Shown: one piece after another, positions 3,234 to 44,802 of the stretch | Numbering within the stretch: position 1 is the stretch's first letter | Layout: each line of letters starts with the position of its first letter | From: an uncultured Ignavibacteriales bacterium | GTDB taxonomy: Bacteria; Bacteroidota; Ignavibacteria; UBA10030; SZUA-254 | Direction of reading: 5' to 3' | Assembly: GCA_963714795.1 (NCBI GenBank) | Contig: CAVQPS010000009.1 | Span: 806,709 to 870,708 of the forward strand | Length of the DNA: 64,000 nucleotides | Translations under genes and position numbers: made by a program | Notes under the pieces: model-generated | The model's database searches: none | Told to the model about the DNA's origin: nothing | Seen by the model: only the letters and a program-made list of their open reading frames with translations

Positions 3234-3671
3234 ATGAATTATCGTCATACCCAACTCGGTTGGATTACCATACCGGCGATCCTGATTGCTATCATCGTCT
3301 TCCTGATCGTAAGTGGTGGTGCGGGAATCTCTCAAGTTAATCAGGGTCTCGGACTGCTTCTTCTTGTGGTCATGCTGGGGTTATTCTATTCTTTCACTAT
3401 TGAAATCAGCAATGGCATTCTACAGTGTCGTTTTGGACCCGGAATTATTCGAAGACGTATTTCGATATCCGAAATCGAAGAGGCAAAGAGTGTCCGCAAT
3501 CCGTGGTACTCCGGATGGGGAATACGATGGAGACCGGGGCAGTATGTCTTGTGGAATGTTTCGGGACGTCGGGCGGTTGAGCTGGTACTCAAGAACGGAA
3601 ATCGATTTCGTATTGGAACTAACGAACCGGAGGCGCTTGTGCAGGCCATCCAATCAAACAAAGTTCTTTAA
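3234..3671 (+). CDS. Small membrane protein with two N-terminal TM helices and a PH-like soluble domain. It is not KdpC.
   Basis: ATG at 3234 is preceded by AAGGAA. The translation MNYRHTQLGWITIPAILIAIIVFLIV... has two hydrophobic helices followed by a roughly 80-aa domain. There is no similarity to the KdpC consensus. The ORF-track start at 3096 lies inside kdpB and is not used. Confidence 0.5.
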   Translation: MNYRHTQLGWITIPAILIAIIVFLIVSGGAGISQVNQGLGLLLLVVMLGLFYSFTIEISNGILQCRFGPGIIRRRISISEIEEAKSVRNPWYSGWGIRWRPGQYVLWNVSGRRAVELVLKNGNRFRIGTNEPEALVQAIQSNKVL

Positions 3672-3694
3672 ACTATAAATAATAGGAAGGTAAA

Positions 3695-5026
3695 ATGAAA
3701 CAACTGCTTCTTTTTTTCATTATCTCGACAGTAACAACCTGTTTTGGTCAAACGGATTCCGTTACTGCTGCAGCGCCGTTTGCGTTCGGCGACTTTACAT
3801 GGCTCAACGGTAACACCAGGCAGAACACTTCCGTCCTGGATACAAAATATTTTACCGGCGAGTTTCGTGCCGATGTCTCGTACATCGAAGATTTTAATCA
3901 GCCGATCGATCACACGCTCTCCGGAACGTCGGAAAGCGGCCGGACGAGCGAGATTCAGGTTCAGCAGCTCGGTATCGGAGGTGACTTTCATGTCGGTCAT
4001 GCATTGGGGCGGCTCATGACGCAATTCGGCATGTATTCCACCATGACCCCGCGGAACGATGCCAGTCCGGCGCGAGGTCAATGGGACCTTGCCAATGCAT
4101 ATCGTTATGTTTCTGAAGCATACGGCGGATATCATTGGGATGTGATGAACGGAATTAATTTCGAGGCGGGTATTTTTATGTCGTACGTCGGGTTGTTCGG
4201 TTATTATAATTTCGATAACTGGGCATATCAGCCGTCGTATGTTTCTTCCAACACGCCGTGGTTTTTCAACGGCCTTCGTGTTCAGATATTTACAAGCGAT
4301 AAACTCAAGATCGAGCCATGGATCATCAACGGCTGGCAGTCGTACGGAATGTTTAACCACACGCCGGGTGTCGGCTTCCAGATATTATGGCGCCCCAAGG
4401 AAACCGTTTCCGTTCTTTCCAACGGATACTACGGTCATGATTGGCTTGGACTGCCAGATCGCATGAGAATTCATAGCGACAACAGCATTGAGATTAAGTA
4501 TTTCGACGATCCGACGCAGGGTTTGGATAAAGCGGCGTTTTCTCTTACGGGAGATATCGGGTGGGAAAGCGGTGACGGTGTAAACGGCCTTACGAGCGCT
4601 CCGGGATCTCCTGCGCAATACTTTGCAGGTGGAATGTTGTACAACCGTTTATGGTTTAATCATGATCAGTTCGCTGTGACGATTGGCGGTGGGGGAATAA
4701 CCAATCCCGGCAGATATCTTGTGCTGATGCCGCCGATTAACGGCGCAACAGCGTTTTCAGGAACGCCGTATTTCACCGAAAACGCCGGTGATCAGTTTAA
4801 GGCATGGGATTGCACGGTAACGTTTGATTACATGCCCGATCAATGGACGACGTTCCGCATCGAATACAATCATCGCGAGTCGAATGTTCCCTACTTCGCA
4901 GGCGGCGGCGGCGTTACACCTCCGGGCGGCAATACCGGTACCCCCGGTTCATCCGTCGACGGTTGGGCGCCCGATCTTCGTACAACCGAAACCCGTCTTA
5001 ACCTTGCCGTGCTCGTGAAATTCTAA
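3695..5026 (+). CDS. Outer-membrane beta-barrel porin-like protein with a signal peptide
   Basis: N-terminal signal peptide (MKQLLLFFIISTVTTCFGQ). Aromatic- and Gly-rich alternating strands. The C-terminus ends ...LAVLVKF (terminal Phe). Preceded by AGGAAGG. Confidence 0.65.
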   Translation: MKQLLLFFIISTVTTCFGQTDSVTAAAPFAFGDFTWLNGNTRQNTSVLDTKYFTGEFRADVSYIEDFNQPIDHTLSGTSESGRTSEIQVQQLGIGGDFHVGHALGRLMTQFGMYSTMTPRNDASPARGQWDLANAYRYVSEAYGGYHWDVMNGINFEAGIFMSYVGLFGYYNFDNWAYQPSYVSSNTPWFFNGLRVQIFTSDKLKIEPWIINGWQSYGMFNHTPGVGFQILWRPKETVSVLSNGYYGHDWLGLPDRMRIHSDNSIEIKYFDDPTQGLDKAAFSLTGDIGWESGDGVNGLTSAPGSPAQYFAGGMLYNRLWFNHDQFAVTIGGGGITNPGRYLVLMPPINGATAFSGTPYFTENAGDQFKAWDCTVTFDYMPDQWTTFRIEYNHRESNVPYFAGGGGVTPPGGNTGTPGSSVDGWAPDLRTTETRLNLAVLVKF

Positions 5027-12952: not shown

Positions 12953-13897
12953 ATGCCGTTACCAAAGTATGCATTTTTCAACGATAAAGTTATTCCCTAT
13001 GACGAAGCGAAAGTTGGTGTCCTGACACATGCGCTGAACTATGGAACCGCAATTTTTGACGGTATCCGGGGATACTGGAATGAGGAAGAACACGAGCTGT
13101 TTATTTTCCGGCTTCAGGATCACTGCCGCCGTTTTCTCCAGTCGGCAAAGTTGTTGTGTATGAAACTTCCGTTTAACGAACAGACGCTTTTTCAGGCATT
13201 TATGGAAGTGCTCCAGGCTGAACAATATCATGAAGATTGTTATATCCGTCCGCTCGCTTTTTATTCCGATGAAATTATCGGTGTTCGCCTTCACAATCTG
13301 ACGCCGGCCCTGTCGATCGTGGCGCTTCCGTTCGGCCGGTATGTGGATAATGAAGAAGGAACGCGCGTTACTGTTTCTTCGTGGCGCCGGGTCGATGACA
13401 ATATGATCCCGCCGCGCGGAAAGATCGCCGGTTCGTATGTGAATTCTGCTTTTATCAAAACCGATGCCCAGCGGGCGGGATTTGATGAAGCTATCGTGCT
13501 GAATCACGACGGACATGTTTCGGAAGGTTCTGCCGAAAATTTCTTTATGATCAAAAACGGAGTCGTGATCACACCCCCCATTACGGATAATATCCTGGAA
13601 GGCATTACACGCCGTACGATGATATCGCTTTTCCGGGATGAACTGGAACTGGAAGTGGTCGAACGTCAGATCGATCGAACCGAATTGTATCTTGCCGACG
13701 AGATGTTCTTTGTTGGAACGGGCGTTCAAATCGCATCGATTATTGAAGTTGATCATCGTCCTATCGGAAACGGTTCGATGGGAATCGTGACGAAAGAAAT
13801 GCGCGATATCTATTTCAATACCGTCCGCGGACGTATCCACAAATATCGCGGCTGGTGTTCGCCGGTCTACGATATGCATGTGATCGGTAAATCATAA
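12953..13897 (+). CDS. ilvE: Branched-chain amino acid aminotransferase (class IV PLP fold)
   Basis: 314 aa. The N-terminus AFFNDKVIPYDEAKVGVLTHALNYGTAIFDGIRGY... and the residues EGSAENFFMIKNGVVITPP are typical of IlvE. Preceded by GAGGAAAGGA. Confidence 0.9.
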   Translation: MPLPKYAFFNDKVIPYDEAKVGVLTHALNYGTAIFDGIRGYWNEEEHELFIFRLQDHCRRFLQSAKLLCMKLPFNEQTLFQAFMEVLQAEQYHEDCYIRPLAFYSDEIIGVRLHNLTPALSIVALPFGRYVDNEEGTRVTVSSWRRVDDNMIPPRGKIAGSYVNSAFIKTDAQRAGFDEAIVLNHDGHVSEGSAENFFMIKNGVVITPPITDNILEGITRRTMISLFRDELELEVVERQIDRTELYLADEMFFVGTGVQIASIIEVDHRPIGNGSMGIVTKEMRDIYFNTVRGRIHKYRGWCSPVYDMHVIGKS

Positions 13898-31697: not shown

Positions 31698-32882
31698 ATG
31701 ATCCACATTGCACAACGTATGAGCCGTCTCGGAACGGAAACAGCATTTGAAGTGCTTGCCAGAGCGCGGGCATTGGAAGCACAGGGAAAAGAAATCATTC
31801 ATCTTGAAATCGGCGAACCGGATTTTGATACGCCGATCAACATTCGCAACGCTGCAAAGAAAGCGATCGATGAGGGGATGACACATTATGGTCCGGCTGC
31901 AGGTTTGCCGGAAGCCCGGAAAACGATCGCAGCATATATTTCAAAAACGCGGAAGATCAGCGTCAATCCCGATCAGGTCGTTGTCACCCCGGGGGCAAAA
32001 CCGATCATGTTCTTTGTCGTTCTTGCCTGTGTCGACGAAGGGGATGAAGTGATATATCCTAATCCCGGATTTCCGATTTATGAATCGGCAATTGATTTTG
32101 TCGGTGCGAAATCGGTTCCCATTCAGTTGAAAGAAGAAAATGAATTTCGTATCAATATCGATGATTTGAAGAAATTGATTACGAAAAAGACCCGTCTGTT
32201 GATCCTCAACTCGCCGCAGAATCCGACCGGCGGCATTTTGACCGAAGCGGATATACGGGCTATTGCCGATCTTGCTATCAAACACGACTTTATGGTTCTG
32301 TCCGATGAAATTTATGATCAGATTATTTACGACGGATTTACGCCGCTCAGTATTGCGACAATTCCGGGCATGCAGGAACGCACAATTATTCTCGATGGAT
32401 TTTCCAAGACGTACGCGATGACGGGGTGGCGGCTGGGCTTCGGCGTGATGCCTGCCGAACTTGCCGCACATGTCACCCGGCTTCAAATAAACAGTACTTC
32501 GTGTACCGCTAGCTTTTCACAAATTGCCGCCATAGAAGCGTTAACTGGGCCTCGCCAGGACGTGCAGAAAATGGTAAAGGAATTCGAACGGCGCCGCAAT
32601 TTGATCGTAGAGGGATTGAATGCTATCGACGGTATTCGATGCCACAAGCCGCACGGTGCATTTTATGTGTTTCCCAATATTACCGGAACCGGACGTTCGT
32701 CACGCGAACTTGCCGACGTGCTGCTCACCGAGGCCGGTGTTGCGTGTTTATCGGGAACATCATTCGGTAAATTTGGCGAGGGATTTTTGCGGTTCTCGTA
32801 CGCGAATTCCGTTCCCAACATTGAAAAGGCGATTGCCCGCGTTGCCAAAACGGTAGAGCGGCGGACGACAGTACCCGCATAG
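31698..32882 (+). CDS. PLP-dependent aminotransferase class I (aspartate/aromatic aminotransferase-like)
   Basis: 394 aa. NSPQNPTGG, GFSKTYAMTGWRLGFG (the PLP-Lys region) and RFSYA are class-I aminotransferase motifs. Confidence 0.85.
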   Translation: MIHIAQRMSRLGTETAFEVLARARALEAQGKEIIHLEIGEPDFDTPINIRNAAKKAIDEGMTHYGPAAGLPEARKTIAAYISKTRKISVNPDQVVVTPGAKPIMFFVVLACVDEGDEVIYPNPGFPIYESAIDFVGAKSVPIQLKEENEFRINIDDLKKLITKKTRLLILNSPQNPTGGILTEADIRAIADLAIKHDFMVLSDEIYDQIIYDGFTPLSIATIPGMQERTIILDGFSKTYAMTGWRLGFGVMPAELAAHVTRLQINSTSCTASFSQIAAIEALTGPRQDVQKMVKEFERRRNLIVEGLNAIDGIRCHKPHGAFYVFPNITGTGRSSRELADVLLTEAGVACLSGTSFGKFGEGFLRFSYANSVPNIEKAIARVAKTVERRTTVPA

Positions 32883-32917
32883 CGGCTTTTTCCTTCGGAT
32901 AGTACCCAAAATAATTC

Positions 32918-32960
32918 TTGACATTGATTTTTGTTTTTTGTATACTTTAGTAGACTAAAG
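32918..32960 (+). promoter_or_regulatory. Sigma70-type promoter (TTGACA-17-TATACT). A perfect 7-2-7 palindrome CTTTAGT-AG-ACTAAAG overlaps the -10 and +1. It is a candidate operator for the YerC-like regulator.
   Basis: -35 at 32918-32923, 17-nt spacer, -10 at 32941-32946, palindrome at 32945-32960. The regulator ATG is at 32965. Confidence 0.6.
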
Positions 32961-32964
32961 TGCT

Positions 32965-33252
32965 ATGCGTAAAATAACCCGGGACGATATTGAATCGATG
33001 TACGGTGCGATTTTGTCGCTGCAAACGATGAATGAGGCGAAATTGTTTTTCCGTGATCTCCTGACGCAAACGGAAATTAATGAATGCGTCGAACGGTGGA
33101 AAGCCGCCCGGCTGCTTTCGGCGGGAGTTCCCTATACGCAGATCATCAGCGAGACCGGACTCAGTTCCACGACGGTCGCCCGCGTCGCCCGGTGGATGAA
33201 GAAGGGCACCGGCGGTTACCGCCTTGCTTTGCGCCGGACCCGGCCACAATAA
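32965..33252 (+). CDS. yerC: YerC/YecD (TrpR-related) family DNA-binding protein
   Basis: 95 aa. TQTEINECVERWKAARLLSAGVPYTQIISETGLSSTTVARVARW is the helix-turn-helix region characteristic of the TrpR/YerC family. Confidence 0.75.
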   Translation: MRKITRDDIESMYGAILSLQTMNEAKLFFRDLLTQTEINECVERWKAARLLSAGVPYTQIISETGLSSTTVARVARWMKKGTGGYRLALRRTRPQ

Positions 33253-33268
33253 TTTTTTTTATCAATTC

Positions 33269-33286
33269 ACTTTATTATACTAAAGT
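33269..33286 (+). promoter_or_regulatory. Near-palindrome ACTTTATTATACTAAAGT abutting the hisG start codon. It shares the ACTAAAG half-site with the upstream operator.
   Basis: 16 of 18 self-complementary. It sits after a short GC hairpin and T8 tract at 33236-33260. Confidence 0.45.
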
Positions 33287-34162
33287 ATGCTCGCACGAAA
33301 CGGTAGATTAAAGATCGCGATTCAGAAAGACGGCCGCATTACGGAAGATTCCATCGGGTTGCTGAAACATGCCGGCCTGGATTTTGATATCCGGTCGAGA
33401 GCGCTGTTTTCTCCCTGCCGGAATTTTCCGCTCGATGTGCTTGCCGTCCGGGATGACGATATACCGGAATACGTTCAGGATGGCGTGAGCGACCTCGGCA
33501 TCGTCGGTGAAAATATTGTCGCTGAAAAACGTGCACGCGTTAAGGTTGTCGAACGGATGGGATTCGGAAAATGCCGTTTGGTGATTTGCATTCCGAAAGG
33601 AAGCACCATCAAAACCATTTCACAGCTTCGCCGGAAGCGCATTGCAACATCGTACCCGGTAACCGTCAAACAATTCCTGCATGAACATTCGATTGAAGCT
33701 GAAATCATTGAGATCAGCGGATCGGTGGAAATTACACCCGCGCTGAATGTTGCCGATGCAACATGCGATATCGTCTCGACCGGAAGTACCGCCCGCGTGA
33801 ACGGGCTTGAGTTTCTTCATACCGTGATGGAATCCGAGGCGGTTTTGATCGCAAACGCAGATGCAGTCAAATCGGTAAAGAAAAAACCGGCCATCGATAA
33901 TCTTTTGGTCCGGATTCGAAGTCAATTGAATGCCCGCGGCAAAAAATATATCATGATGAACGCTCCGTCTAAGGCTATTCGAAATATTACGACGCTTATT
34001 CCCGGCATGAAAAGTCCCACCATCATGCCGTTAGCATCGTCCGATATGGTCGCCGTCCACTCGGTGGTCGGTGAAGATGTTTTTTGGGATGTGATCGATC
34101 AGTTAAAACGCGCCGGTGCTTCCGATATTGTCGTTCTTCCGATCGAAAAAATTATCGCATAA
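33287..34162 (+). CDS. hisG: ATP phosphoribosyltransferase (long form)
   Basis: RLKIAIQKDGRITEDSIGLLKHAGLDF, DIVSTGSTARVNGLE. 291 aa including the C-terminal regulatory domain. Confidence 0.92.
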   Translation: MLARNGRLKIAIQKDGRITEDSIGLLKHAGLDFDIRSRALFSPCRNFPLDVLAVRDDDIPEYVQDGVSDLGIVGENIVAEKRARVKVVERMGFGKCRLVICIPKGSTIKTISQLRRKRIATSYPVTVKQFLHEHSIEAEIIEISGSVEITPALNVADATCDIVSTGSTARVNGLEFLHTVMESEAVLIANADAVKSVKKKPAIDNLLVRIRSQLNARGKKYIMMNAPSKAIRNITTLIPGMKSPTIMPLASSDMVAVHSVVGEDVFWDVIDQLKRAGASDIVVLPIEKIIA

Positions 34163-34166
34163 TGGT

Positions 34167-35456
34167 ATGAAACGGTTCAATGTTTCACAAATAGATCTTC
34201 AGGCATTCATTAAACGTCTTCGTGGCTTGGTTCTCGACGAAGGAACTGTTGAATCTGTTCGTGTTATGATACGGGAAGTTGCCTCGCGGGGGGATGATGC
34301 TGTTCGAATGTTGACGAAACAATTCGACCGTGTGACGATGGAAGATCTTTCTGTTACCGATGAGGAATTTATTCAGGCAAAAAACGTCACTTTGGCAACT
34401 ATTGTCAATGCACTTTCTGTCGCTGCTAATAATATCGAACAATTTCACCGCGCTCAACTTCCAAAGCCGGTAGAAGTTCAAACGATGCGGGGCGTTGTGT
34501 GCCGCCGTGAGTGGCGGCCGATTCGTCGGGTTGGGCTTTATGTTCCCGGCGGCTCTGCACCACTGATCTCGACGGTTTTGATGCTCGGCATTCCGGCCCG
34601 CATTGCCGGTTGTGAGGAAGTAATACTTTGTACGCCGCCGGCAGGGTCGGGGGAAATTTCGGCGGCTCTCCTTGTTGCCGCGGAAATGGTCGGCATCAAA
34701 CGGGTTTATAAAATTGGAGGCGCGCAGGCGATTGCCGCCATGGCCGTTGGAACAACAACGATTCCCCGTGTCGATAAAATATTCGGTCCGGGCAACCGGT
34801 TTGTTTCTGCCGCCAAATCGATCGTTTCACATCCGCCGTATAATGTCGCCATCGATATGCTTGCCGGTCCGTCGGAGCTTCTGATTGTAGCCGACGAATC
34901 TGCAAATCCCCGATGGGTTGCCGCCGATCTGTTATCACAGGCCGAGCATGGAAAAGATTCTCCCGTTTTTCTCATTTCAACTTCGTCATCATTTGTCGAT
35001 GAGGTTGAAAAATGGATTTCTGTTCAACGATCAAGTCTGACCCGATCGGCGATGATTGAAGAATCGATTCGCAACAGTGTTGCCCTCGTTGTCGACCATC
35101 TTGATGATGCGATCCGGGTTGCAAACGAATATGCGTCGGAGCATTTGATTCTCGCGGTGAACAATCCCGGCAAAATTATTCCCCGCATTCAAAATGCCGG
35201 GTCGGTATTTATCGGTAATCTGACTTCGGTTGTCTTCGGTGATTATGCCTCCGGAACGAATCATACATTGCCGACGAACGGTTCGGCCGTTTCAACCGGC
35301 GGATTAACGGTAGAGAGTTTCATGAAGCCGATTTCATTTCAATCAATAACGAATGAGGGATTTCAGAATCTTGCGGCAGTCGCCAAAACCCTTGCTCAAG
35401 CCGAAGGTTTGGATGCACATGCAAACGCCGTGGCTGTTCGAGAGGTGACGATATGA
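34167..35456 (+). CDS. hisD: Histidinol dehydrogenase
   Basis: Start MKRFNV at 34167. GGSAPLISTVLMLGIPARIAGC, IYKIGGAQAIAAMAVGT, LSQAEHG are HisD motifs. Confidence 0.92.
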   Translation: MKRFNVSQIDLQAFIKRLRGLVLDEGTVESVRVMIREVASRGDDAVRMLTKQFDRVTMEDLSVTDEEFIQAKNVTLATIVNALSVAANNIEQFHRAQLPKPVEVQTMRGVVCRREWRPIRRVGLYVPGGSAPLISTVLMLGIPARIAGCEEVILCTPPAGSGEISAALLVAAEMVGIKRVYKIGGAQAIAAMAVGTTTIPRVDKIFGPGNRFVSAAKSIVSHPPYNVAIDMLAGPSELLIVADESANPRWVAADLLSQAEHGKDSPVFLISTSSSFVDEVEKWISVQRSSLTRSAMIEESIRNSVALVVDHLDDAIRVANEYASEHLILAVNNPGKIIPRIQNAGSVFIGNLTSVVFGDYASGTNHTLPTNGSAVSTGGLTVESFMKPISFQSITNEGFQNLAAVAKTLAQAEGLDAHANAVAVREVTI

Positions 35457-36496
35457 TCGATTCATTGGTTCGAAAACACCTGCGGTCGTTTCAGCCGTAC
35501 AAATCGGCAAGGAGCGAAACGCATCAAGCTTCAATTTTTTTAGACGCAAACGAATTGTCGATCGGTAGCCCCGTTTCATTCGGTGATATTGCATTGAATC
35601 GCTATCCCGATCCGTATCAGCTTGCTCTTCGCAGAAAGCTTGCTTCCCGGTTCGGAATTTCTTCTGACATGATTTTTCCCGGCGTCGGTTCCGATGAAAT
35701 TATCGATTTGCTGATACGCCTTTTTTGCGAACCGGCAACTGACCGGGTGTTGGTTCTTGAGCCGACGTACGGTGTGTATCGCGTTGCATCGGACGTAAAT
35801 GCCGTTCAAGTCAAAACCGTTCAACTCAACGAGGAATTTCACATCGATCTTCAATCGACGCTTCAGGCGGTAACACCGGATGTAAAAATTATTTTTTGTT
35901 GTTCTCCGAATAATCCAACCGGCAATCTTTTGCGCCGCGAAGATATTCTGGCGTTGTGCAAACAGGTTCGGGGAATCGTGGTGGTCGATGAAGCATATAT
36001 TGAATTTTCCGAAAAAGCGTCGAGTCTGGCTTCCGATGTTTCCCGTGTTCCCAATCTTGTTGTTCTGCGAACATTATCAAAAGCATGGGGGCTTGCCGGG
36101 ATTCGTCTCGGCTATTGTATCGCGAACTCTTCAATCGTTTCATATTTGCTTGCAATCAAATCTCCGTACAACGTGAATGCTGTAACCATACAGCTTGCGT
36201 ATGAAGCGTTAAGCAACGCGGCCTTTTTCGAGAGCGCGCGGTCGATAATTATAACGGAACGCGATCGGGTCCGCCGGGGACTTGAACGGCTTTCATGTGC
36301 CCGGAAGATTTATCCAAGTGAAACAAATTTTTTGTTGATAGAATTCGATGATCCCAAAAAAGTTTTTGAAGTGCTCTATCGAAACGGTATTGTCGTCCGG
36401 CGCAGGAACGAACAGCGCCTGTCTCAGTGTTTGCGGATGACGATCGGCACACCGGAAGAAAATTCGTTGGTATTAAAAATTTTATCGGAAATGTGA
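35453..36496 (+). CDS. hisC: Histidinol-phosphate aminotransferase
   Basis: LDANE...NRYPDP, CSPNNPTGN, LRTLSKAWGLAGIRLGY (PLP-Lys). The ATGA overlaps hisD. Confidence 0.9.
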   Translation: MIDSLVRKHLRSFQPYKSARSETHQASIFLDANELSIGSPVSFGDIALNRYPDPYQLALRRKLASRFGISSDMIFPGVGSDEIIDLLIRLFCEPATDRVLVLEPTYGVYRVASDVNAVQVKTVQLNEEFHIDLQSTLQAVTPDVKIIFCCSPNNPTGNLLRREDILALCKQVRGIVVVDEAYIEFSEKASSLASDVSRVPNLVVLRTLSKAWGLAGIRLGYCIANSSIVSYLLAIKSPYNVNAVTIQLAYEALSNAAFFESARSIIITERDRVRRGLERLSCARKIYPSETNFLLIEFDDPKKVFEVLYRNGIVVRRRNEQRLSQCLRMTIGTPEENSLVLKILSEM

Positions 36497-37590
36497 TGAA
36501 GAAAATTGTTTTTATCGACCGTGACGGTACAATGATTCGTGAACCACGGGACAAGCAAATTGATTCCCTTGAAAAACTGGAATTAATACCCGGCATTATT
36601 TCGGGCTTGGAGTTATTGCGTGATGCAGGATTTTCTCTGGTCATGGTAAGCAATCAGGATGGACTGGGTACGAAACGCTATCCGAAGCGGGCGTTTCAGG
36701 AAGTTCAACAAAAAATTTTAACATTGCTCGACGGTGAAGGGATTCATTTCGAAAAAATATTTATCTGTCCGCACTATGCAAAAGACACCTGTTCCTGCCG
36801 GAAACCGAAGACCGGGCTGGTGGATCGTTTTTTGAAGCAGAACAAGATCGATGAATCGCATTCGTTCGTTCTCGGCGACCGCGATACGGACGTTGTACTT
36901 GCCAAGAATATCGGTGTGCGATCCGTTCAGTATTCATCCGGGAAAAAATCGAAGGCGGAATATCATACCGCAGATATGTTGGATGCCTGCCGGTATATTG
37001 CGCGATCTGCCCGATCATCATCGCTGCGAAGAAAAACCTCGGAAACCGATATAACAGCGCGGGTGTGGCTTGACGGAAACGGTTCGTATGAAGTTCATAC
37101 CGGGATCGGATTTTTCGATCATATGATTGCACAGCTTGCAAAACATTCCGGCATCGATCTGGTTCTGAATGTCGCCGGCGACCTTCATATCGACGAACAT
37201 CATTCTGTCGAAGATGCCGGAATTGTTCTCGGCGAAGTTCTTCGGCAGGCGCTCGGGGAAAAGCGCGGCATCAACCGGTACGGATTTACCGCTCCGCTTG
37301 ATGAAGCTGTTGCGAATGTCGTGCTTGATCTCAGCGGCAGAAGATTTCTTTCTTTTTCGTGCAAGTTTTCGCGCCCCAACGTTGGCGGGCTGCCGACCGA
37401 ATTAGTGGAAGATTTTTTCCGCGCGCTTGCCGACGGATTGCAGGCAACGATCCATATTTCCTGCCGCGGGAGAAATGACCATCATAACATTGAAGCAATT
37501 TTCAAATCCTTTGCTCGTGCGCTGAAACAGGCAATACAGATTGATGAGAGACGCCGCAATCTTTTGCCGACCACCAAGGGAAAATTATGA
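36496..37590 (+). CDS. hisB: Bifunctional histidinol-phosphatase / imidazoleglycerol-phosphate dehydratase
   Basis: N-terminal HAD-like IVFIDRDGTMI, and a C-terminal IGPD domain with repeated DxHHxxE motifs (HIDEHHSVED, DHHNIEA). Confidence 0.9.
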   Translation: MKKIVFIDRDGTMIREPRDKQIDSLEKLELIPGIISGLELLRDAGFSLVMVSNQDGLGTKRYPKRAFQEVQQKILTLLDGEGIHFEKIFICPHYAKDTCSCRKPKTGLVDRFLKQNKIDESHSFVLGDRDTDVVLAKNIGVRSVQYSSGKKSKAEYHTADMLDACRYIARSARSSSLRRKTSETDITARVWLDGNGSYEVHTGIGFFDHMIAQLAKHSGIDLVLNVAGDLHIDEHHSVEDAGIVLGEVLRQALGEKRGINRYGFTAPLDEAVANVVLDLSGRRFLSFSCKFSRPNVGGLPTELVEDFFRALADGLQATIHISCRGRNDHHNIEAIFKSFARALKQAIQIDERRRNLLPTTKGKL

Positions 37591-38189
37591 TCGGCGTTGT
37601 CGATTATGAAGCAGGAAATATTGCCTCCGTCAGCAATGCATTGTCAACGCTTGGTGCTGAATTTATTGTCAGCGGCAGAGCGGATGATTTGTCGCGGTGT
37701 GGCGGCATTATCCTTCCGGGGGTCGGTGCCGCATCCGGCGCGATGCAATCGTTGCGGGAACGAGGTTTGATTGATTTTTTACGGTCTGCCCGTGTTCCTT
37801 TCATGGGAATTTGTTTGGGAATGCAGATTTTATATGAAAATTCTGCCGAAGGCGATACACAGTGCCTTGGAATTTTTCCGGGAATGATAAAAAAACTGAA
37901 TGTCTCGGCCGAAAAAATTCCGCATATGGGCTGGAACCGGGTAGAGATCATAGCACCGCATCCGTTGATGAACGGGATTCGATCGAATGATTTTTTTTAT
38001 TTTGCCCATTCCTATATCGCACCGGTGGACGATTGTACGATTGGAATTACCGCCAGCGGCGAACGATTTGCTGCTGTCGTCGCGAAAGAAAATTATGTTG
38101 GTGTTCAATTTCATCCGGAAAAATCCGGCGCGAGCGGACTTCATCTCTTACGAAATTTTATCGAATTATGTTCATCATCCCGGCAATAG
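37587..38189 (+). CDS. hisH: Imidazole glycerol phosphate synthase, glutamine amidotransferase subunit
   Basis: GVCLGMQIL (catalytic Cys), and HPEKSG near the C-terminus. Confidence 0.9.
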   Translation: MIGVVDYEAGNIASVSNALSTLGAEFIVSGRADDLSRCGGIILPGVGAASGAMQSLRERGLIDFLRSARVPFMGICLGMQILYENSAEGDTQCLGIFPGMIKKLNVSAEKIPHMGWNRVEIIAPHPLMNGIRSNDFFYFAHSYIAPVDDCTIGITASGERFAAVVAKENYVGVQFHPEKSGASGLHLLRNFIELCSSSRQ

Positions 38190-38887
38190 ATATCATTCAA
38201 AATTCGTGTGTTCGCCTCACGGAAGGTTCGTATTCTTCCGTGAAGAATTATTCTGTTTCACCGGAGGTTATGGCGAAAGAATTTATTGGTGCCGGCGCAA
38301 CCCATCTTCATGTTGTCGATCTTGAAGGCGCCAAACAAGGAAATGTTATCAACTGGGACGCTCTTGTTGCAATACGGAAATTGAAGAGTGTTACTCTCCA
38401 GTTCGGCGGCGGCGTACGGTCGGAGGCGGATGTAATTCGGCTTATCGATATCGGAGTCGACCGCATTATCATCGGAAGCATCGCATTACTTTCTCCGACC
38501 ATCTTACAGCAATGGATCGACCGTTTCGGTTCTGAACGATTCTGTGTTGCGCTCGATTTCAAAGATGGAACGATTGCTACACACGGCTGGCAAAAAGTTA
38601 CTCAATCAACATACAATGATGTGGTGCCCGGATTAATAAAAATCGGTGTGAAGAATTTTCTTTCGACTGATATTCGGAAAGACGGAATGATGAGCGGTCC
38701 GAATTTTGAACTCTATAAAAACCTTGTCAGCACGTTTCCTTCTGCCGATTGGTTTGCATCCGGCGGCGTGCATTCTCCGGAAGATATCCGTCAGTTGAAG
38801 ACGACCGGTGTGACCGGAGCGATTATCGGTAAAGCATTATATGAAGGAAAGTTACGATTGAAAGATATATTGGAGTTGCAATGCTGA
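38168..38887 (+). CDS. hisA: 1-(5-phosphoribosyl)-5-[(5-phosphoribosylamino)methylideneamino]imidazole-4-carboxamide isomerase
   Basis: Start MFIIPAIDIIQNSCVRL at 38168. (beta/alpha)8 HisA pattern: VVDLEGA, GGGVRS. It overlaps hisH. Confidence 0.88.
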   Translation: MFIIPAIDIIQNSCVRLTEGSYSSVKNYSVSPEVMAKEFIGAGATHLHVVDLEGAKQGNVINWDALVAIRKLKSVTLQFGGGVRSEADVIRLIDIGVDRIIIGSIALLSPTILQQWIDRFGSERFCVALDFKDGTIATHGWQKVTQSTYNDVVPGLIKIGVKNFLSTDIRKDGMMSGPNFELYKNLVSTFPSADWFASGGVHSPEDIRQLKTTGVTGAIIGKALYEGKLRLKDILELQC

Positions 38888-39636
38888 CACGTCGAATAAT
38901 TCCCTGCCTCGATGTGCTTGACGGAAGGGTGGTCAAAGGGAAAAAATTTCAAAAACTTACCGACGTCGGAGACCCGGTAGAACTTGCCGCACGATATTCC
39001 GATGAAGGAGCAGATGAAATTGTTCTTCTCGATATTTCTGCCTCGCTGGAATTCCGGAAACCGTTTTTCGATCTCGTTGCCGATGTGGCGAAACATGTCG
39101 CTATTCCGCTGACGGTCGGCGGAGGGATCCGTTCGCTTGACGATATTATTTCACTCCTCCGGTGCGGTGCCGATAAAGTATCTCTGAATACCGTTTTGAC
39201 TGACGATCCGTTCTTGTTAGGTCGTGCGGCCGAGCGTGTCGGCACACAGGCGCTGGTTGCTGCAATTGATGTTCAACGCCGAAACGGTTCGTGGACGGTT
39301 CATGTGAAAAGCGGCACGGAACAAACCGGTCGTGATGCGCTTGCGTGGGCGAAAACTGTTGTGGATCACGGCGCCGGTGAGTTATTGATCACATCGATCG
39401 ATCACGACGGCATGAAACAAGGTTATGATGTTGAACTGCTGGCGAAACTTTCAACGCTGGTTAAGGTGCCGATTGTCGCTTCCGGCGGCGCCGGGACGGT
39501 TCAACATCTTCTCGATGCACTTTCTCTCGGCCGCGCCGACGCGGTGCTCGCGGCAAGCATTTTTCATTTTAAAGAAATTTCCATTATCCAATTAAAACAA
39601 TTTCTTTCTGCGGAAGGACTTCCGGTGCGATTATGA
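38881..39636 (+). CDS. hisF: Imidazole glycerol phosphate synthase cyclase subunit
   Basis: MLTRRIIPCLDV..., TVGGGIRS, ASGGAG are classic HisF residues. Confidence 0.92.
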   Translation: MLTRRIIPCLDVLDGRVVKGKKFQKLTDVGDPVELAARYSDEGADEIVLLDISASLEFRKPFFDLVADVAKHVAIPLTVGGGIRSLDDIISLLRCGADKVSLNTVLTDDPFLLGRAAERVGTQALVAAIDVQRRNGSWTVHVKSGTEQTGRDALAWAKTVVDHGAGELLITSIDHDGMKQGYDVELLAKLSTLVKVPIVASGGAGTVQHLLDALSLGRADAVLAASIFHFKEISIIQLKQFLSAEGLPVRL

Positions 39637-40232
39637 TTGAGAAATTACAATTTGATAAACTCAACGGCATTGTTCCCGCAATTATTCAGGATGCTGATGA
39701 CGGCACGGTCCTGATGGTCGGTTTTATGAATCGTGAAGCGGTGGAGCAGACGCTCAGGGATCGTCAGGTTATTTTTTGGAGCCGCACCAAACAGCGTCTC
39801 TGGAAAAAAGGTGAAACATCCGGAAATATTCTTCATGTTGTGTCGGTCGTGACGGATTGCGATAATGATTCACTGCTTATTACCGTAAAACCGTCAGGCC
39901 CAGTCTGTCATACCGGCGAACGGAGCTGTTTTCCCGAAGCTTCTTCTCGGATCGGTGCAACGCTCCAGAATCTCGAAACAGTTATTCAATCCAGAAAAAA
40001 AGAAATGCCGGCCGGTTCCTATACAACAGAATTATTCAGGAAGGGTGTTGCCAGAATTGCGCAGAAAGTCGGGGAAGAAGCTGTGGAGCTTTCGATTGCT
40101 GCGCAGTATAACGACAAACAACGAATCATGGAAGAAACAGCCGATTTGTTGTATCATACCATTGTACTTCTCGCAGAAAAAGGAATTACGATGCAGGATA
40201 TTTATCGGGAACTTGGGAAAAGGGTGAAATAG
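39633..40232 (+). CDS. hisI: Bifunctional phosphoribosyl-AMP cyclohydrolase / phosphoribosyl-ATP pyrophosphatase
   Basis: N-terminal HisI (VPAIIQD...CHTGERSCF). C-terminal HisE (EEAVELSIAAQYNDKQRIMEETADLLYH). Confidence 0.9.
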   Translation: MIEKLQFDKLNGIVPAIIQDADDGTVLMVGFMNREAVEQTLRDRQVIFWSRTKQRLWKKGETSGNILHVVSVVTDCDNDSLLITVKPSGPVCHTGERSCFPEASSRIGATLQNLETVIQSRKKEMPAGSYTTELFRKGVARIAQKVGEEAVELSIAAQYNDKQRIMEETADLLYHTIVLLAEKGITMQDIYRELGKRVK

Positions 40233-40262
40233 GGTAATCGGCTTTTTGAGTTTTCACCGATA

Positions 40263-41246
40263 ATGCCGTATATTGACGATGCAAACTGTGCATTTCAATT
40301 CGGCATGATGAAAACATTTGACCTTGCAATAGCGTGGAATTGGGAGTTTGATGACGATTTCGTTACCGGAATCGAACATCAATGCGCTGTGCGCGGTATT
40401 TCCACTTACCGCATCGATCCGAACAATCTCGCCGAAACAATCCACAACGTGCGATCGGGACATCTCGGATTTCGTTCTTTATTTGACCGTGCTTCCGATG
40501 CCGATACGGAATTTCTTCAACTCGTTCGATTGCTGAAACAACCGTCGGTGTTTGTCATCAATCCGCATGAGAATGTCGTGCAGGCAATCGATAAGTCGAC
40601 GATGCACCTTACGCTGATTACAAACGGTATTCATGTTCCGAACAGCATCATTCTCCCGCCGTTCCGGACGAACGGAACGGTCAAATTACAGCAAAGTGAT
40701 CTCGACCGGGTCGGTATTCCGTTCGTCATCAAACCGGCGAATACGACCGGCGGCGGTACCGGCGTCGTTATGCAGGCGCGGACGCTCAATGATGTTCTGA
40801 CTGCCCGCATGACTCACGCGGATGATACCTATCTTGTTCAGGAAACTATTGTTCCGCAAATGCTCGAAGGAAAACGAGCGTGGTTCCGTGCGTATTGTAT
40901 ATTCCATGAAAATATTATTTGCTGGTGGGATGATACGACGCATGCATATACCGAAATGATGCCGGACGACGAGCAACGCCACGGCCTTGCCGGCATTCGC
41001 GATATTATGAAAACGATCCAGCGTACATGCAAGCTCGATTTTTTTTCTTCCGAAATTGCCGTGACGGATGAACGAAAATTTATCGTCGTCGATTATGTGA
41101 ATGAAGTATGCGATATGCGCCTGCAATCGAAATATGCCAACGGAGCGCCGGATGCCGTCGTCCATAAAATTGAAATGCTGATCGCCGACAGAGTAGCGCA
41201 CCATACAGGCAAACCGGAAGGCATCGTAACCGGACATGATTATTAA
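40263..41246 (+). CDS. ATP-grasp fold protein (RimK/glutathione-synthetase-like). The start may be the internal Met at about 40305.
   Basis: GIPFVIKPANTTGGGTGVVM (P-loop-like of ATP-grasp) and YLVQETIVPQ. Its stop overlaps the next gene. Confidence 0.6.
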   Translation: MPYIDDANCAFQFGMMKTFDLAIAWNWEFDDDFVTGIEHQCAVRGISTYRIDPNNLAETIHNVRSGHLGFRSLFDRASDADTEFLQLVRLLKQPSVFVINPHENVVQAIDKSTMHLTLITNGIHVPNSIILPPFRTNGTVKLQQSDLDRVGIPFVIKPANTTGGGTGVVMQARTLNDVLTARMTHADDTYLVQETIVPQMLEGKRAWFRAYCIFHENIICWWDDTTHAYTEMMPDDEQRHGLAGIRDIMKTIQRTCKLDFFSSEIAVTDERKFIVVDYVNEVCDMRLQSKYANGAPDAVVHKIEMLIADRVAHHTGKPEGIVTGHDY

Positions 41247-44200
41247 TGATATTCCCCGTATGAAAATTTCTCTGACCCGGTTTCCCCAATTATCGCAACA
41301 GGATGTTCGGCAGTATCCGCGATATGAATTTCATATTCGGGCTGAAGTCCGGAAAAAATATGAATTTGATGATTCGTTGTACGGCATTACCGGCAACGTT
41401 ATCTTTCCGAACTTTCGCGCCGTTCGTGTTTTTGCTCAGAAAATGAACGCTCGTCGCGATCTTCGGCATCATCCGGAACAAACCGTCAAAGCCGGGCATC
41501 TCAACGCCATGGGATTGATCGATGAAATATTTCATCACCTGTTGCGCGTTTACGAAGAGACAGTCAACCCGAACGTCTTTGCGCGTGCGTTAAAACATCT
41601 TGACGGAACCGTCGACCATTCATCGGTCCTTTCGACTCTGAAGGAATTTATCGATGAGTTCCCCCCCATTGATGTTCATCGAAACATTATCCACCGCGAT
41701 AAATATCTCAAAGCGAAAACCGGGAATAAACCTCATCCCGAAATCACACTTGAAGAAATTATTTTACTTTCACTTGCCAATTTCAATCCGGCATTTGTAC
41801 CGTTCAAAGAATTATTTCAGGATGAACGATTGCGGAATGATACGAAGTATTCCGTTATCCTGCAGGAACTGGAAAAATTCTTCCGTTCCGAAAAACCGTT
41901 CGGTACTCAGGGAATAACGGTGCTGGACCTTCTTCGTGCACCGATACTTGCATGTCCGGACAGTCTGGAAGGACAACTTTCGTACATCAAACAGCATTGG
42001 GGATTGCTGTTGGGCGACCGGTTCCTGAAAAAGCTTCTTGGCGCCCACGATCTCATCGAGGAAGAATCAAAACTTATTTTTTCGGGCGGCGATGTGCCGA
42101 CAGTTGTGCCGACGTATACATCTGCCGATGGTTTCAAGGCAATCGATCTTGAGCGATTTACATCCGATCTCGAATGGATGCCGAAAGTTGTACTGATAAC
42201 AAAGAATACATATGTCTGGCTCGATCAGTTATCAAAAAAATACCGACGATCGATTACGAAGCTGAATGAAATACCGGACGAAGAACTCGACCGGCTTGCC
42301 CGCTGGAATTTTACAAGCTTGTGGCTGATCGGCATCTGGGAACGAAGTTCTGCATCACAAAAGATCAAACAGATGACCGGCAATCCGGAAGCCGTTGCCT
42401 CGGCATATTCAATTTACGATTACGTGATTGCAAACGATCTTGGCGGCGAGGAAGCATTCCAGCATCTCCGGCACCGTGCATGGGCGCGCGGCATCCGGCT
42501 TGCCGGCGATATGGTGCCGAATCACGTCGGCATTTATTCAAAATGGGTAGTCGAGCATCCCGATTATTTTATTCAATCCGACTACCGGCCGTTTCCGAAT
42601 TATCAATTTAACGGTGAGAATCTTTCGGAGCATGCCGATGTCGATATCCGGATCGAAGACGGTTACTGGAACAGAAGCGATGCAGCGGTGGCTTTTCAAC
42701 GGGTGGATAAACGAACGGGGAACGTGCGGTACCTGTATCACGGCAACGACGGAACGAATATGCCGTGGAACGACACGGCACAACTCAATTTTTTGCGCGC
42801 CGAGGTTCGTGAAGCGGTTATCCAGATGATCTTTCATGTAGCGAGAAAATTTTCCGTCATCCGTTTCGATGCGGCGATGGTGCTGGCAAAAAAACATTTC
42901 CAGCGATTATGGTTTCCGCCACCCGGCGCCGGCGGGGCAATTCCGTCGCGTGCCGATTACGCTATCGCAACGGAAGAATTCAACCGGCTCTTTCCGAATG
43001 AGTTCTGGCGCGAGGTGGTCGACCGTATCAACAGCGAAATGCCGAATACGTTACTGCTTGCCGAAGCGTTCTGGCTGCTCGAAGGATATTTTGTCCGCAC
43101 GTTGGGCATGCATCGCGTATACAACAGCGCATTTATGCACATGCTGATGAAAGAAGAGAATGCAAAATACCGTGAACTGATCCGGAACACACTGCATTTC
43201 AATCCGGAAATCCTGAAACGGTACGTCAATTTTATGAGCAATCCGGATGAACAAACTGCCATCGCACAATTCGGAAAAGATGATAAATATTTCGGTGTTG
43301 CCGTTTTGCTGGTGACGTTGCCGGGACTTCCGATGTTTGCCCACGGTCAGATCGATGGATTCACTGAAAAATACGGCATGGAATATAAACGCGCCTATTA
43401 TAAAGAAGAATCGGATGAGCATTTAGTGCGGAGGCATGAGGCGGAAATTTTTCCCATCATGCAAAAGCGACATCTGTTCAGCCAGATGACCGATTTCGAA
43501 CTGTATGATTTTATCGACACGAACGGTAACCTCAATGAAAATGTCTTTGCCTATTCCAATATGGCCGGCGACGAACGCGCGCTGATTTGTTATCATAATA
43601 AATATGAGGAAACCGCAGGATGGATTATGCACTCGGTCGGGAAAACGACCTCCACGACCGGTGATGAAGAGGGAAAAAAAGTTATCCGGCGCACGCTTGG
43701 TCAGGCATTGCACATTCGCCGGGAAGATGCTTATTTCTATATTTTTAAAGATCATAAAACAAATCTGGAATTTATCCGATCCGGGATCGAGCTTCATGAT
43801 CGGGGACTATTTGTCGAGTTGAAAGCATTTCACTATCATATCTTCCTCGATTTCCGGGAAGTTCATGACACAACAGGAGAATATCAATCTCTTGCGCATC
43901 ACCTGAACGGAAACGGTGTTGCCAATATCAATAGTGCATTACGCAATCTCAAACTTGCCCCGTTGCATCATGCTTTTGAGCAGCTTTTTACCGATGCAGC
44001 ATTCGATCATTTGACAACACTCTGTGCCGAACAGAGCACTTCCAAACAATTGGAAATATCCCGTAAAGCATTATCGTCGATTTATGCCGATTTTCTTGAC
44101 CAACTTCAACAATATGAGCCGAAAAAATTTCCGAAGACGGCTATTCTGAAAAATTTTGAAGATGATGTACGTACTCTTCATATTCTGAATAACCGGCCCT

Positions 44201-44802
44201 TTGCCGACATCGACGCATCGTTTGACAAGAAATTTCAAAAGAGTATGATGTCGATCGACAAAACTGCTGAACAGCGTTTCGGATCGACAGTAATCGAGAT
44301 GGGATTAATCGTATTGAAGCAGTTGGAAATGGTTTCGGTACAACCTGCCGAAAGAATATCTTCCGGGAATGTGTTTGACCGGATCGGGATTGCCGATACA
44401 TTGCGATCGATTTTGGATCAGCGGGATTTTCCCGAGCAGGATCGAAATGGAATCGTACACTTGATCAGAGTTCTTCTCACACAACCGAATCCGATGGATG
44501 GCCCGGCGCAGATGCGGGAAACTGTTCATCGCATACTTGAGCAAGAAACCGTCCAACAGTTTCTCAATGTCAACCGGCATGAAAATATTTTATATTTTAA
44601 TAAAGAACGGTTTGAACTGATGCTTTATTGGTGGTTCTGGTCGGTTTCAATCAGCGTTATCCGGTCATGCAAGATTCCGGAAGCGAATAAAATTCTTGCA
44701 CAAACAATGAAGGTCGCCGAAAAGCTCCATCATTCTGCGGAAATATCCGGATTTAAGCTGGATGATTTTCGGAATGAACTTGTAAAGCTTCATGTCAAAT
44801 AA
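41236..44802 (+). CDS. Large (1188 aa) GH13-family (alpha-amylase superfamily) multidomain protein
   Basis: GH13 regions: YSIYDYV...GGEEAFQHLRHRAWARGIRLAGDMVPNHVG (region I), VIRFDAAMVLAKKHF (region II, catalytic Asp), LLAEAFWL (region III, Glu), FMSNPDEQT (region IV). Confidence 0.75.
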   Translation: MIINDIPRMKISLTRFPQLSQQDVRQYPRYEFHIRAEVRKKYEFDDSLYGITGNVIFPNFRAVRVFAQKMNARRDLRHHPEQTVKAGHLNAMGLIDEIFHHLLRVYEETVNPNVFARALKHLDGTVDHSSVLSTLKEFIDEFPPIDVHRNIIHRDKYLKAKTGNKPHPEITLEEIILLSLANFNPAFVPFKELFQDERLRNDTKYSVILQELEKFFRSEKPFGTQGITVLDLLRAPILACPDSLEGQLSYIKQHWGLLLGDRFLKKLLGAHDLIEEESKLIFSGGDVPTVVPTYTSADGFKAIDLERFTSDLEWMPKVVLITKNTYVWLDQLSKKYRRSITKLNEIPDEELDRLARWNFTSLWLIGIWERSSASQKIKQMTGNPEAVASAYSIYDYVIANDLGGEEAFQHLRHRAWARGIRLAGDMVPNHVGIYSKWVVEHPDYFIQSDYRPFPNYQFNGENLSEHADVDIRIEDGYWNRSDAAVAFQRVDKRTGNVRYLYHGNDGTNMPWNDTAQLNFLRAEVREAVIQMIFHVARKFSVIRFDAAMVLAKKHFQRLWFPPPGAGGAIPSRADYAIATEEFNRLFPNEFWREVVDRINSEMPNTLLLAEAFWLLEGYFVRTLGMHRVYNSAFMHMLMKEENAKYRELIRNTLHFNPEILKRYVNFMSNPDEQTAIAQFGKDDKYFGVAVLLVTLPGLPMFAHGQIDGFTEKYGMEYKRAYYKEESDEHLVRRHEAEIFPIMQKRHLFSQMTDFELYDFIDTNGNLNENVFAYSNMAGDERALICYHNKYEETAGWIMHSVGKTTSTTGDEEGKKVIRRTLGQALHIRREDAYFYIFKDHKTNLEFIRSGIELHDRGLFVELKAFHYHIFLDFREVHDTTGEYQSLAHHLNGNGVANINSALRNLKLAPLHHAFEQLFTDAAFDHLTTLCAEQSTSKQLEISRKALSSIYADFLDQLQQYEPKKFPKTAILKNFEDDVRTLHILNNRPFADIDASFDKKFQKSMMSIDKTAEQRFGSTVIEMGLIVLKQLEMVSVQPAERISSGNVFDRIGIADTLRSILDQRDFPEQDRNGIVHLIRVLLTQPNPMDGPAQMRETVHRILEQETVQQFLNVNRHENILYFNKERFELMLYWWFWSVSISVIRSCKIPEANKILAQTMKVAEKLHHSAEISGFKLDDFRNELVKLHVK

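Follow-up and report, generated by a model that had tools for sequence, protein, structure and literature searches.

How are the genes of histidine biosynthesis controlled when a small gene for a TrpR-like protein stands directly in front of them and palindromes mark the starts of both that gene and hisG? The question was raised by a stretch of 64,000 nucleotides (called the window throughout) from an Ignavibacteria-like member of the Bacteroidota. A sequence-only reading had proposed autoregulation as well as control of the his operon by the TrpR-like protein, and had regarded this as an uncharacterised mode of his regulation. Here, we analyzed the protein, its putative operators and the corresponding loci of related genomes, and compared them with repressors already described. 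The 95-residue protein is very probably a HisR-type (YerC/YecD, TrpR-fold) repressor of histidine biosynthesis acting at two operators (O1 and O2), with hisR and the his genes predicted to share a single transcript.

Organization of the hisR-his locus

All genes and promoter elements described here are located on the forward strand; the two palindromic operators have no strand assigned. The hisR gene (yerC/yecD family, 32965-33252) is separated by an intergenic region of 34 nt from hisG (33287-34162), which encodes the long form of the enzyme with a C-terminal regulatory domain (PF01634, PF08029, TIGR00070). Domain and family matches confirmed the gene order hisGDCBHAFIE that had been read from the sequence: hisD (histidinol dehydrogenase, 34167-35456; PF00815 2e-157 and ORF tables), hisC (histidinol-phosphate aminotransferase, 35453-36496; PF00155, with the same position after hisD in related loci), hisB (36496-37590; PF00475 and HAD-type domains), hisH (37587-38189; TIGR01855 1e-64), hisA (38168-38887; TIGR00007 7e-71), hisF (38881-39636; TIGR00735 9e-96) and the bifunctional hisIE (39633-40232; NF002747 2e-83). 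HisB is bifunctional as well, combining a HAD phosphatase with an IGP dehydratase, and the ATG at 36496 agrees with the onset of its domain matches. For hisA, the ATG at 38168 was taken as the start, the TIGR00007 match beginning at residue 46-48 of a longer TTG open reading frame. An alternative GTG start of hisD is present at 34116, overlapping hisG. Stop and start codons of the his genes mostly overlap, and together hisGDCBHAF(IE) encode the complete pathway. No Shine-Dalgarno sequence precedes hisG; this feature and the 34 nt that separate hisG from the hisR stop codon were counted against a polycistronic model.

The regulator belongs to the HisR (YerC/YecD) family

HisR, the orthologue of Bacillus subtilis YerC, is a repressor of the TrpR family, identified through comparative genomics, that controls genes for the biosynthesis and transport of histidine (Ashniev et al., 2022, BMC Genomics 23:558, PMC9413887). 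The 95-residue protein of the window, described by the sequence-only reading as TrpR-like/YerC, matched the yecD_yerC family TIGR02531 (NCBIfam) with 63.7 bits, above the curated cutoff of 42.2, and Trp_repressor (PF01371, Pfam) with an E-value of 3e-17 and 62.9 bits (cutoff 27). Its sequence matches in the PDB were the YerC/HisR-type structures 3g1c, 3frw and 3kor (E of about 1e-11, 30-36% identity), the first of which is the HisR structure used in the published work (PMC9413887). The AlphaFold model consists of six helices (pLDDT 86), and its closest fold matches were 3frw, 3kor and 3g1c (probability 1.0), followed by E. coli TrpR. In its size and in its modeled all-helical TrpR fold with a helix-turn-helix, the protein thus corresponds to the family.

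In an alignment of 25 sequences of the clade, the recognition-helix residues Y57, T70 and R73 were invariant, and their counterparts in 3g1c are likewise Y, T and R. Y57 is the Tyr that replaces Arg69 of TrpR, and T70 and R73 are equivalent to Thr81 and Arg84, so that these DNA-contact positions conform to the family, whereas at the positions corresponding to Ala80 and Ser83 the window protein has T69 and A72. Five acidic residues (E24, D31, E37, E40 and E43) were likewise invariant across the clade, in agreement with the acidic helix-2 pocket that was proposed to accommodate histidine (PMC9413887).

A sigma-70 promoter fused to operator O1

The promoter of hisR consists of a -35 hexamer TTGACA (32918-32923) and a -10 hexamer TATACT (32941-32946) separated by 17 nt, i.e. 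the textbook sigma70 promoter that the earlier reading had recognized; in a promoter scan of positions 32700-33500 it was the sole sigma-70-like match (11 of 12 positions). The -10 hexamer shares its final three bases with the beginning of operator O1 (ACTTTAGTAGACTAAAGT, 32944-32961; 20-bp form 32943-32962), which also overlaps the predicted transcription start and is separated from the hisR ATG at 32965 by 3 nt. O1 had been described as a perfect 7-2-7 palindrome overlapping the -10/+1 region. The symmetry is indeed perfect and the overlap with the -10 hexamer exists, but each arm is one base longer, giving the 8-2-8 palindrome ACTTTAGT-AG-ACTAAAGT.

This arrangement was preserved in relatives. 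The alignment consensus around O1 reads C-TTG(a/c)ca, 17 nt, TATACTTTAC..A.TAAAGT, then ATG: each of the three positions of the -35 TTG, at its fixed distance of 17 nt from TATACT, was conserved in 36-40 of 46 related loci, and TAT directly 5' of ACTTTA in 36-42 of 46 O1 sites. Both hexamers are therefore conserved in the related loci, with the -10 element fused to the left half-site of the operator. The gap between O1 and the hisR ATG was 0 nt in 27 and 3 nt in 10 of 47 loci. Transcription initiated about 7 nt downstream of the -10 hexamer would begin within O1, and its leader would be short (about 9-12 nt) and devoid of a Shine-Dalgarno sequence. A Bacteroidetes-type promoter (TTTG / TAnnTTTG) was also considered for hisR and rejected, the conserved TTGACA-17-TATACT being, by eye, the better fit to a standard sigma-70 promoter.

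Operator O2 and the T tract in front of hisG

The near-palindrome that the sequence-only reading had placed against the hisG start is operator O2 (ACTTTATTATACTAAAGT, 33269-33286; 20-bp form 33268-33287), which is directly followed by the hisG ATG at 33287. In related loci the gap between O2 and the ATG was 0 nt in 30 of 42 cases, and the alignment consensus reads a-TTTTTTT-t, about 8 nt, CACTTTAtc..AgTAAAGT, then ATG. Neither TTG nor TAT was found in the O2 consensus at the positions equivalent to the O1 promoter in the aligned related loci, and no second promoter was called by the scanner in 32700-33500. O2 is located 325 bp downstream of O1 in the window, and in 39 of 42 loci the spacing was 316-345 bp. 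DNA looping between O1 and O2 is not supported, this range of spacings showing no helical phasing.

Directly 3' of the hisR stop codon lies a T8 tract (33253-33260), and a tract of T5-T8 was found at a fixed distance from O2 in 39 of 47 hisR-hisG loci. The earlier reading had combined this tract with a weak GC hairpin; the T8 tract stands and is conserved, but it is not a canonical terminator, and the hairpin is a non-conserved stem of 4 bp, separated from the T tract by 6-8 nt, that falls short of terminator criteria. A consensus terminator scan gave no match at the T tract, and folding of the 45 nt before the tract in 39 loci yielded no consistent hairpin. Terminator-like hairpins preceded the tract in 3 of these 39 loci, compared with 108 of 780 control coding positions (14%). 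A terminator between hisR and hisG was rejected on the basis of the scan, the folding and this comparison.

Both sites match the HisR consensus and are conserved with the linkage to his genes

The 20-bp forms of O1 and O2, tACTTTAgtagacTAAAGTg and cACTTTAttatacTAAAGTa, both fit cacTTTAnnnnnnTAAAgtg, the common consensus published for the 20-bp palindromic HisR operator (PMC9413887). A search of the 64 kb for ACTTTA-N4-ACTAAAGT with at most two mismatches retrieved only O1 and O2, with 0.13 sites expected, and none of 100 shuffles reached this count. As to further members of the regulon in the window, the only additional match (10 of 12 positions, at 12973) lies 20 nt inside an open reading frame and is at chance level.

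Conservation of the motif in orthologous intergenic regions had been set as a test beforehand. A homologue search provided 154 relatives, the closest of which (up to 94% identity) were encoded in metagenome-assembled genomes (MAGs) labelled Bacteroidota or Ignavibacteriae, and others in genomes labelled Blastocatellia or Acidobacteriota. Scanning a single genome for each species yielded 80 related loci, comprising Ignavibacteria/Bacteroidota MAGs (including one of Ignavibacterium album), two Blastocatellia-labelled MAGs, many Patescibacteria, and MAGs labelled Gammaproteobacteria or left unclassified. With a threshold of at least 11 of 12 positions of ACTTTA-N6-TAAAGT, a site was present just upstream of hisR in 75/80 loci. 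Linkage to his genes in relatives, the second test named by the earlier reading, was found in 46/80 loci, where hisG directly follows hisR; 41 of these 46 carry a site between the two genes. Among the hisR-hisG loci, hisD came next wherever the sequence reached that far, and hisC was present in most. Altogether, 124 of 131 sites fell at the hisR or hisG positions, the chance expectation for 456 kb being about 2. Neither test refuted the regulatory reading; this conservation and linkage strongly support the predicted autoregulation and control of the his operon by the TrpR-like protein. For a family-wide regulon, a pattern scan of metagenomes was performed with ACTTTA-N6-TAAAGTATG; among the matches listed, 107 of 127 precede open reading frames of less than 50 residues and are chance matches, 3 precede hisR and 2 precede hisG.

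Proposed mechanism of repression

By analogy with the characterised family, a HisR dimer loaded with L-histidine would bind the 18-20-bp palindrome ACTTTA-N6-TAAAGT. Since O1 overlaps both the -10 hexamer and the predicted start point, binding there should, from the geometry, block RNA polymerase and lead to autorepression of hisR. The most likely arrangement is one hisR-hisGDCBHAF(IE) transcript initiated at the hisR promoter; a single transcript is favored because no conserved -35/-10 elements precede O2, and we infer co-transcription from one observation, the absence of a recognisable hisG promoter. O2 would then act as a roadblock, i.e. an additional barrier to polymerase entering the biosynthetic genes, so that repression may be tighter for the his enzymes than for HisR. 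A drop in histidine would release HisR from O1 and O2 and allow transcription of the whole operon.

Alternative readings of O2, of the palindromes and of the ligand

A different role of O2 is conceivable, namely that the operator harbours a separate promoter for hisG, which is translated from a leaderless mRNA. The spacer of O2 in the window reads TATACT (33276-33281), with 5 nt between this hexamer and the hisG ATG; exactly 17 nt upstream of it, in the place of a -35 element, lies the T tract (33253-33258). The A of the ATG would be the first transcribed base, HisR bound to O2 would occlude the promoter, and hisG-IE would form a transcription unit apart from hisR. The absence of a Shine-Dalgarno sequence at hisG, compared with its presence at about 10 other window genes, points in this direction, as does the zero gap between O2 and the ATG seen in most loci, which a leaderless start needs. 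In one relative (L020), a strong hairpin and a T5 tract follow hisR, and TTGTCT-17-TATAGT-5-ATG is found within O2; moreover, A occupies the second position of the putative -10 element in 19 of 42 O2 sites but in only 6 of 46 O1 sites. However, TTTTTT is a poor -35 element, and the scanner calls no promoter here. By eye, about 10 of 42 O2 spacers read TANNNT, so the -10 element is not conserved, and with only about a quarter of the spacers of this form a leaderless promoter cannot be the rule for the family. O1 abuts its ATG in the same manner, although its promoter clearly lies further upstream. We consider an embedded hisG promoter possible, though it is not what we expect, and otherwise retain O2 as a putative roadblock within one transcript. 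A broader suggestion, which we put forward as unlikely, treats the T tract, 8 nt, O2 and the ATG as one module distinctive of this Ignavibacteria-type lineage, serving either as a leaderless-hisG promoter or as a HisR roadblock that ends transcription jointly with the upstream U tract and without a hairpin. The HisR family would, in addition, extend over Bacteroidota, Acidobacteriota-labelled genomes and Patescibacteria, in some cases beside genes other than his. If true, either reading of the module uncouples the expression of repressor and enzymes in a way that is undescribed for HisR.

That the palindromes act as RNA, by hairpins masking the start codons or, together with the T tract, as an attenuator or terminator, is highly improbable. 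An AU-rich hairpin of 6 bp could arise from either palindrome beside the AUG, and a U tract is nearby, but the half-sites are nearly invariant in sequence across phyla, which is conservation of sequence and not merely of pairing, and they equal the consensus built on predicted DNA sites of HisR, a set with one member confirmed in vitro. Most of O1 would lie before the transcription start or at it, and the U tract stands before the O2 hairpin, not after it, and itself lacks a preceding hairpin. The RNA fold of 33200-33300 was no better than that of shuffled sequences (z = -0.35), and a scan of the whole window at Rfam gathering thresholds gave no match, including the His leader and the T-box. 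RNA-based control of the his genes by a His leader attenuator or a histidine T-box was rejected on these grounds, together with the short intergenic region and the lack of a conserved hairpin. With O1 and O2 taken as DNA sites, HisR might still sense a ligand other than histidine (e.g. a pathway intermediate) or none at all. Compared with Firmicutes HisR, several helix-2 positions proposed for histidine contact are changed (among them FFED to FFRD and RFEVAK to RWKAAR), and because these positions differ L-histidine is not proven as the ligand. HisR paralogues whose targets have changed to tyrosine/tyramine or histidine-utilisation genes have been published, and homologues in CPR genomes adjoin non-his genes. 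Against this, the regulated genes form the complete histidine pathway, whose end product is the expected co-repressor, and the five acidic residues are still invariant. Another ligand, or none, is accordingly quite unlikely, and both the pathway and the acidic residues suggest L-histidine as the co-repressor of the window protein.

Comparison with known systems

The claim that the locus represents an uncharacterised mode of his regulation did not hold: HisR has been published with the same operator consensus, which both window sites match, and HisR of Ruminococcus gnavus bound such a site in vitro only in the presence of histidine (PMC9413887). YerC of B. subtilis had first been predicted earlier by the same group (reference 11 of PMC9413887), and the control system was described between 2013 and 2022. 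HisR was reported in 492 genomes, 395 of Firmicutes and 97 of others, the latter from Actinobacteria, Proteobacteria, Synergistetes, Dictyoglomi, Elusimicrobia and Acholeplasma; paralogues with tyrosine/tyramine or histidine-utilisation targets were included in that publication (PMC9413887). The window protein resembles the published HisR in family (TIGR02531/PF01371), length (about 95 residues) and fold, in the operator consensus cacTTTA-N6-TAAAgtg and in its targets, the his operon and hisR itself. Published operators precede his biosynthesis or transport genes and often hisR, as O1 precedes hisR and O2 precedes hisG. The position of hisR directly upstream of the his operon was likewise already reported for Peptococcaceae, Negativicutes and others (PMC9413887).

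The window system differs from published HisR in its host, an Ignavibacteria-like Bacteroidota MAG, and its protein is 30-36% identical to the solved Firmicutes proteins. Its operators are 0-3 nt from the start codons, whereas the published positions, in the part of that source drawn on here, are mostly -22 to -300, and its lineage has a conserved T tract between hisR and O2. In lineages with a TrpR-like HisR motif, hisR is immediately before hisG and autoregulatory by construction, as in the window, and the operator is near the hisR start (-22 to -50 in the portion of the source considered); these lineages have a single site, TGTAnTA-N6-TnTTACA, in contrast to the two Firmicutes-type TTTA/TAAA sites of the window.

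E. coli TrpR shares the fold of the window protein (1zt9, 1trr and 1tro, probability 0.9-0.98), and TrpR and HisR have in common that they are small, dimeric, co-repressor-dependent and autoregulated, with a palindrome overlapping the -10 hexamer. Unlike in TrpR, the operator sequence and the pathway are those of HisR, and no sequence match between the window protein and E. coli TrpR was obtained at E <= 0.01; the tryptophan-contacting residues of TrpR are not conserved in HisR. A regulator of the E. coli TrpR type (operator TGTACTnGTnnACnAGTACA, control of trp/aro genes) was rejected, because the window sites follow the ACTTTA/TAAAGT pattern and stand beside his genes, not trp genes.

Ignavibacteria, Bacteroidetes, Chlorobi, Acidobacteria and Patescibacteria are not mentioned in the main text of PMC9413887, the regulator goes unmentioned in a survey from 2021 that covered his genes of the Bacteroidota-Chlorobiota superphylum, and our literature search found no earlier report of HisR in Ignavibacteria, Bacteroidota or CPR. 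Matches to 'HisR' in the Bacteroidota-Chlorobiota paper refer to HisRS, the tRNA synthetase. What is new here is the host lineage (Ignavibacteria/Bacteroidota, also Blastocatellia-labelled and Patescibacteria MAGs) of a control system that is already known; operators unusually tight to the start codons, relative to the published positions considered, and the conserved T tract distinguish it slightly. The understanding of his regulation is unchanged, the finding being essentially a correct rediscovery of HisR. For annotation, hisR is the name to be used in place of 'YerC/YecD family TrpR-related protein', and a protein repressor, not an RNA leader, can be assigned to the his operon of Ignavibacteria-like Bacteroidota. 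The range of HisR is extended to lineages outside the 2022 survey, and the roughly 120 conserved operator sites obtained here could refine the motif.

Gene starts and the hisR-hisG spacer

Neither hisR, which encodes the TrpR-fold repressor of the yerC/yecD family, nor hisG is preceded by a Shine-Dalgarno sequence (window 32950-32967 and 33270-33289, respectively), whereas clear GGAG-type sites are found at about ten other genes of the window. At both starts the right half-site TAAAGT of the predicted HisR operator abuts the ATG. A T tract (window 33253-33260, with the equivalent position in L001-L048 of the 80 related hisR loci) lies directly past the hisR stop codon; it is present as T5-T8 in 39 of the 47 hisR-hisG loci, at a constant distance from O2, the operator before hisG, and no conserved hairpin was found 5' of it in these loci. 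If the O2 spacer is taken as a -10 element, the tract occupies the -35 position. A variant layout was observed in L020, an Ignavibacteriales MAG with a 118-nt hisR-hisG spacer (L020:1010-1145), where a strong GC hairpin followed by T5 precedes TTGTCT-17-TATAGT-5-ATG with the -10 falling within the operator spacer. Judged from this layout, L020 looks to have a separate, leaderless hisG promoter.

Flanks and distribution of the module

Directly upstream of the hisR promoter lies a class I (AspAT-like) aminotransferase gene (window 31698-32882), and this synteny is kept in the closest relatives L001, L002, L004, L006, L007 and L013; no HisR site was found in front of the aminotransferase gene in the window. 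Where the his operon stops is not delimited, because no terminator was found 3' of hisIE (window 40232-44802) and further ORFs follow, namely one for a weakly RimK/ATP-grasp-like protein (40263-41246) and, overlapping it within the same interval, one for a 1188-aa protein with alpha-amylase-like regions. The same module of hisR, O1 (the operator before hisR), O2 and hisGDC occurs in L003 and L014, two MAGs labelled Blastocatellia (Acidobacteriota). Their HisR proteins share 66-75% identity with the HisR encoded in the window. The presence of the module in these MAGs points either to horizontal transfer or to a mistake in binning or labelling.

hisR loci of Patescibacteria

Amino-acid biosynthesis is usually thought to be absent from Patescibacteria (CPR) organisms. 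The CPR loci L047 (3166-4407), L071 and L077, in which hisR adjoins a stand-alone PRA-CH (hisI-like) gene, accompanied in L047 by a short-form hisG, are partial his gene sets. Four others (L058, L061, L069 and L074, at about 3280-4570) carry a second HisR-type site 308 nt past the hisR start, before a SLOG cluster4 (PF18306) gene; in L061 the gene next after this one belongs to the AstE/AspA family (PF24827). These loci suggest a HisR paralogue whose regulon is unrelated to histidine biosynthesis. In L075 (Liptonbacteria, 3.6-kb contig) ACTTTAGTTAACTAAAGT is present in three identical copies, at 2828, 3426 and 3538, two of them downstream of hisR. Thirteen CPR loci (among L050-L080) contain two directly abutting HisR-type operators upstream of hisR (for example L067:2941-2976 and L066:2928-2963), and around the majority of them his genes are lacking. 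This arrangement, frequent among the CPR homologues and with the operators phased at 18 bp, recalls the tandem binding of TrpR.
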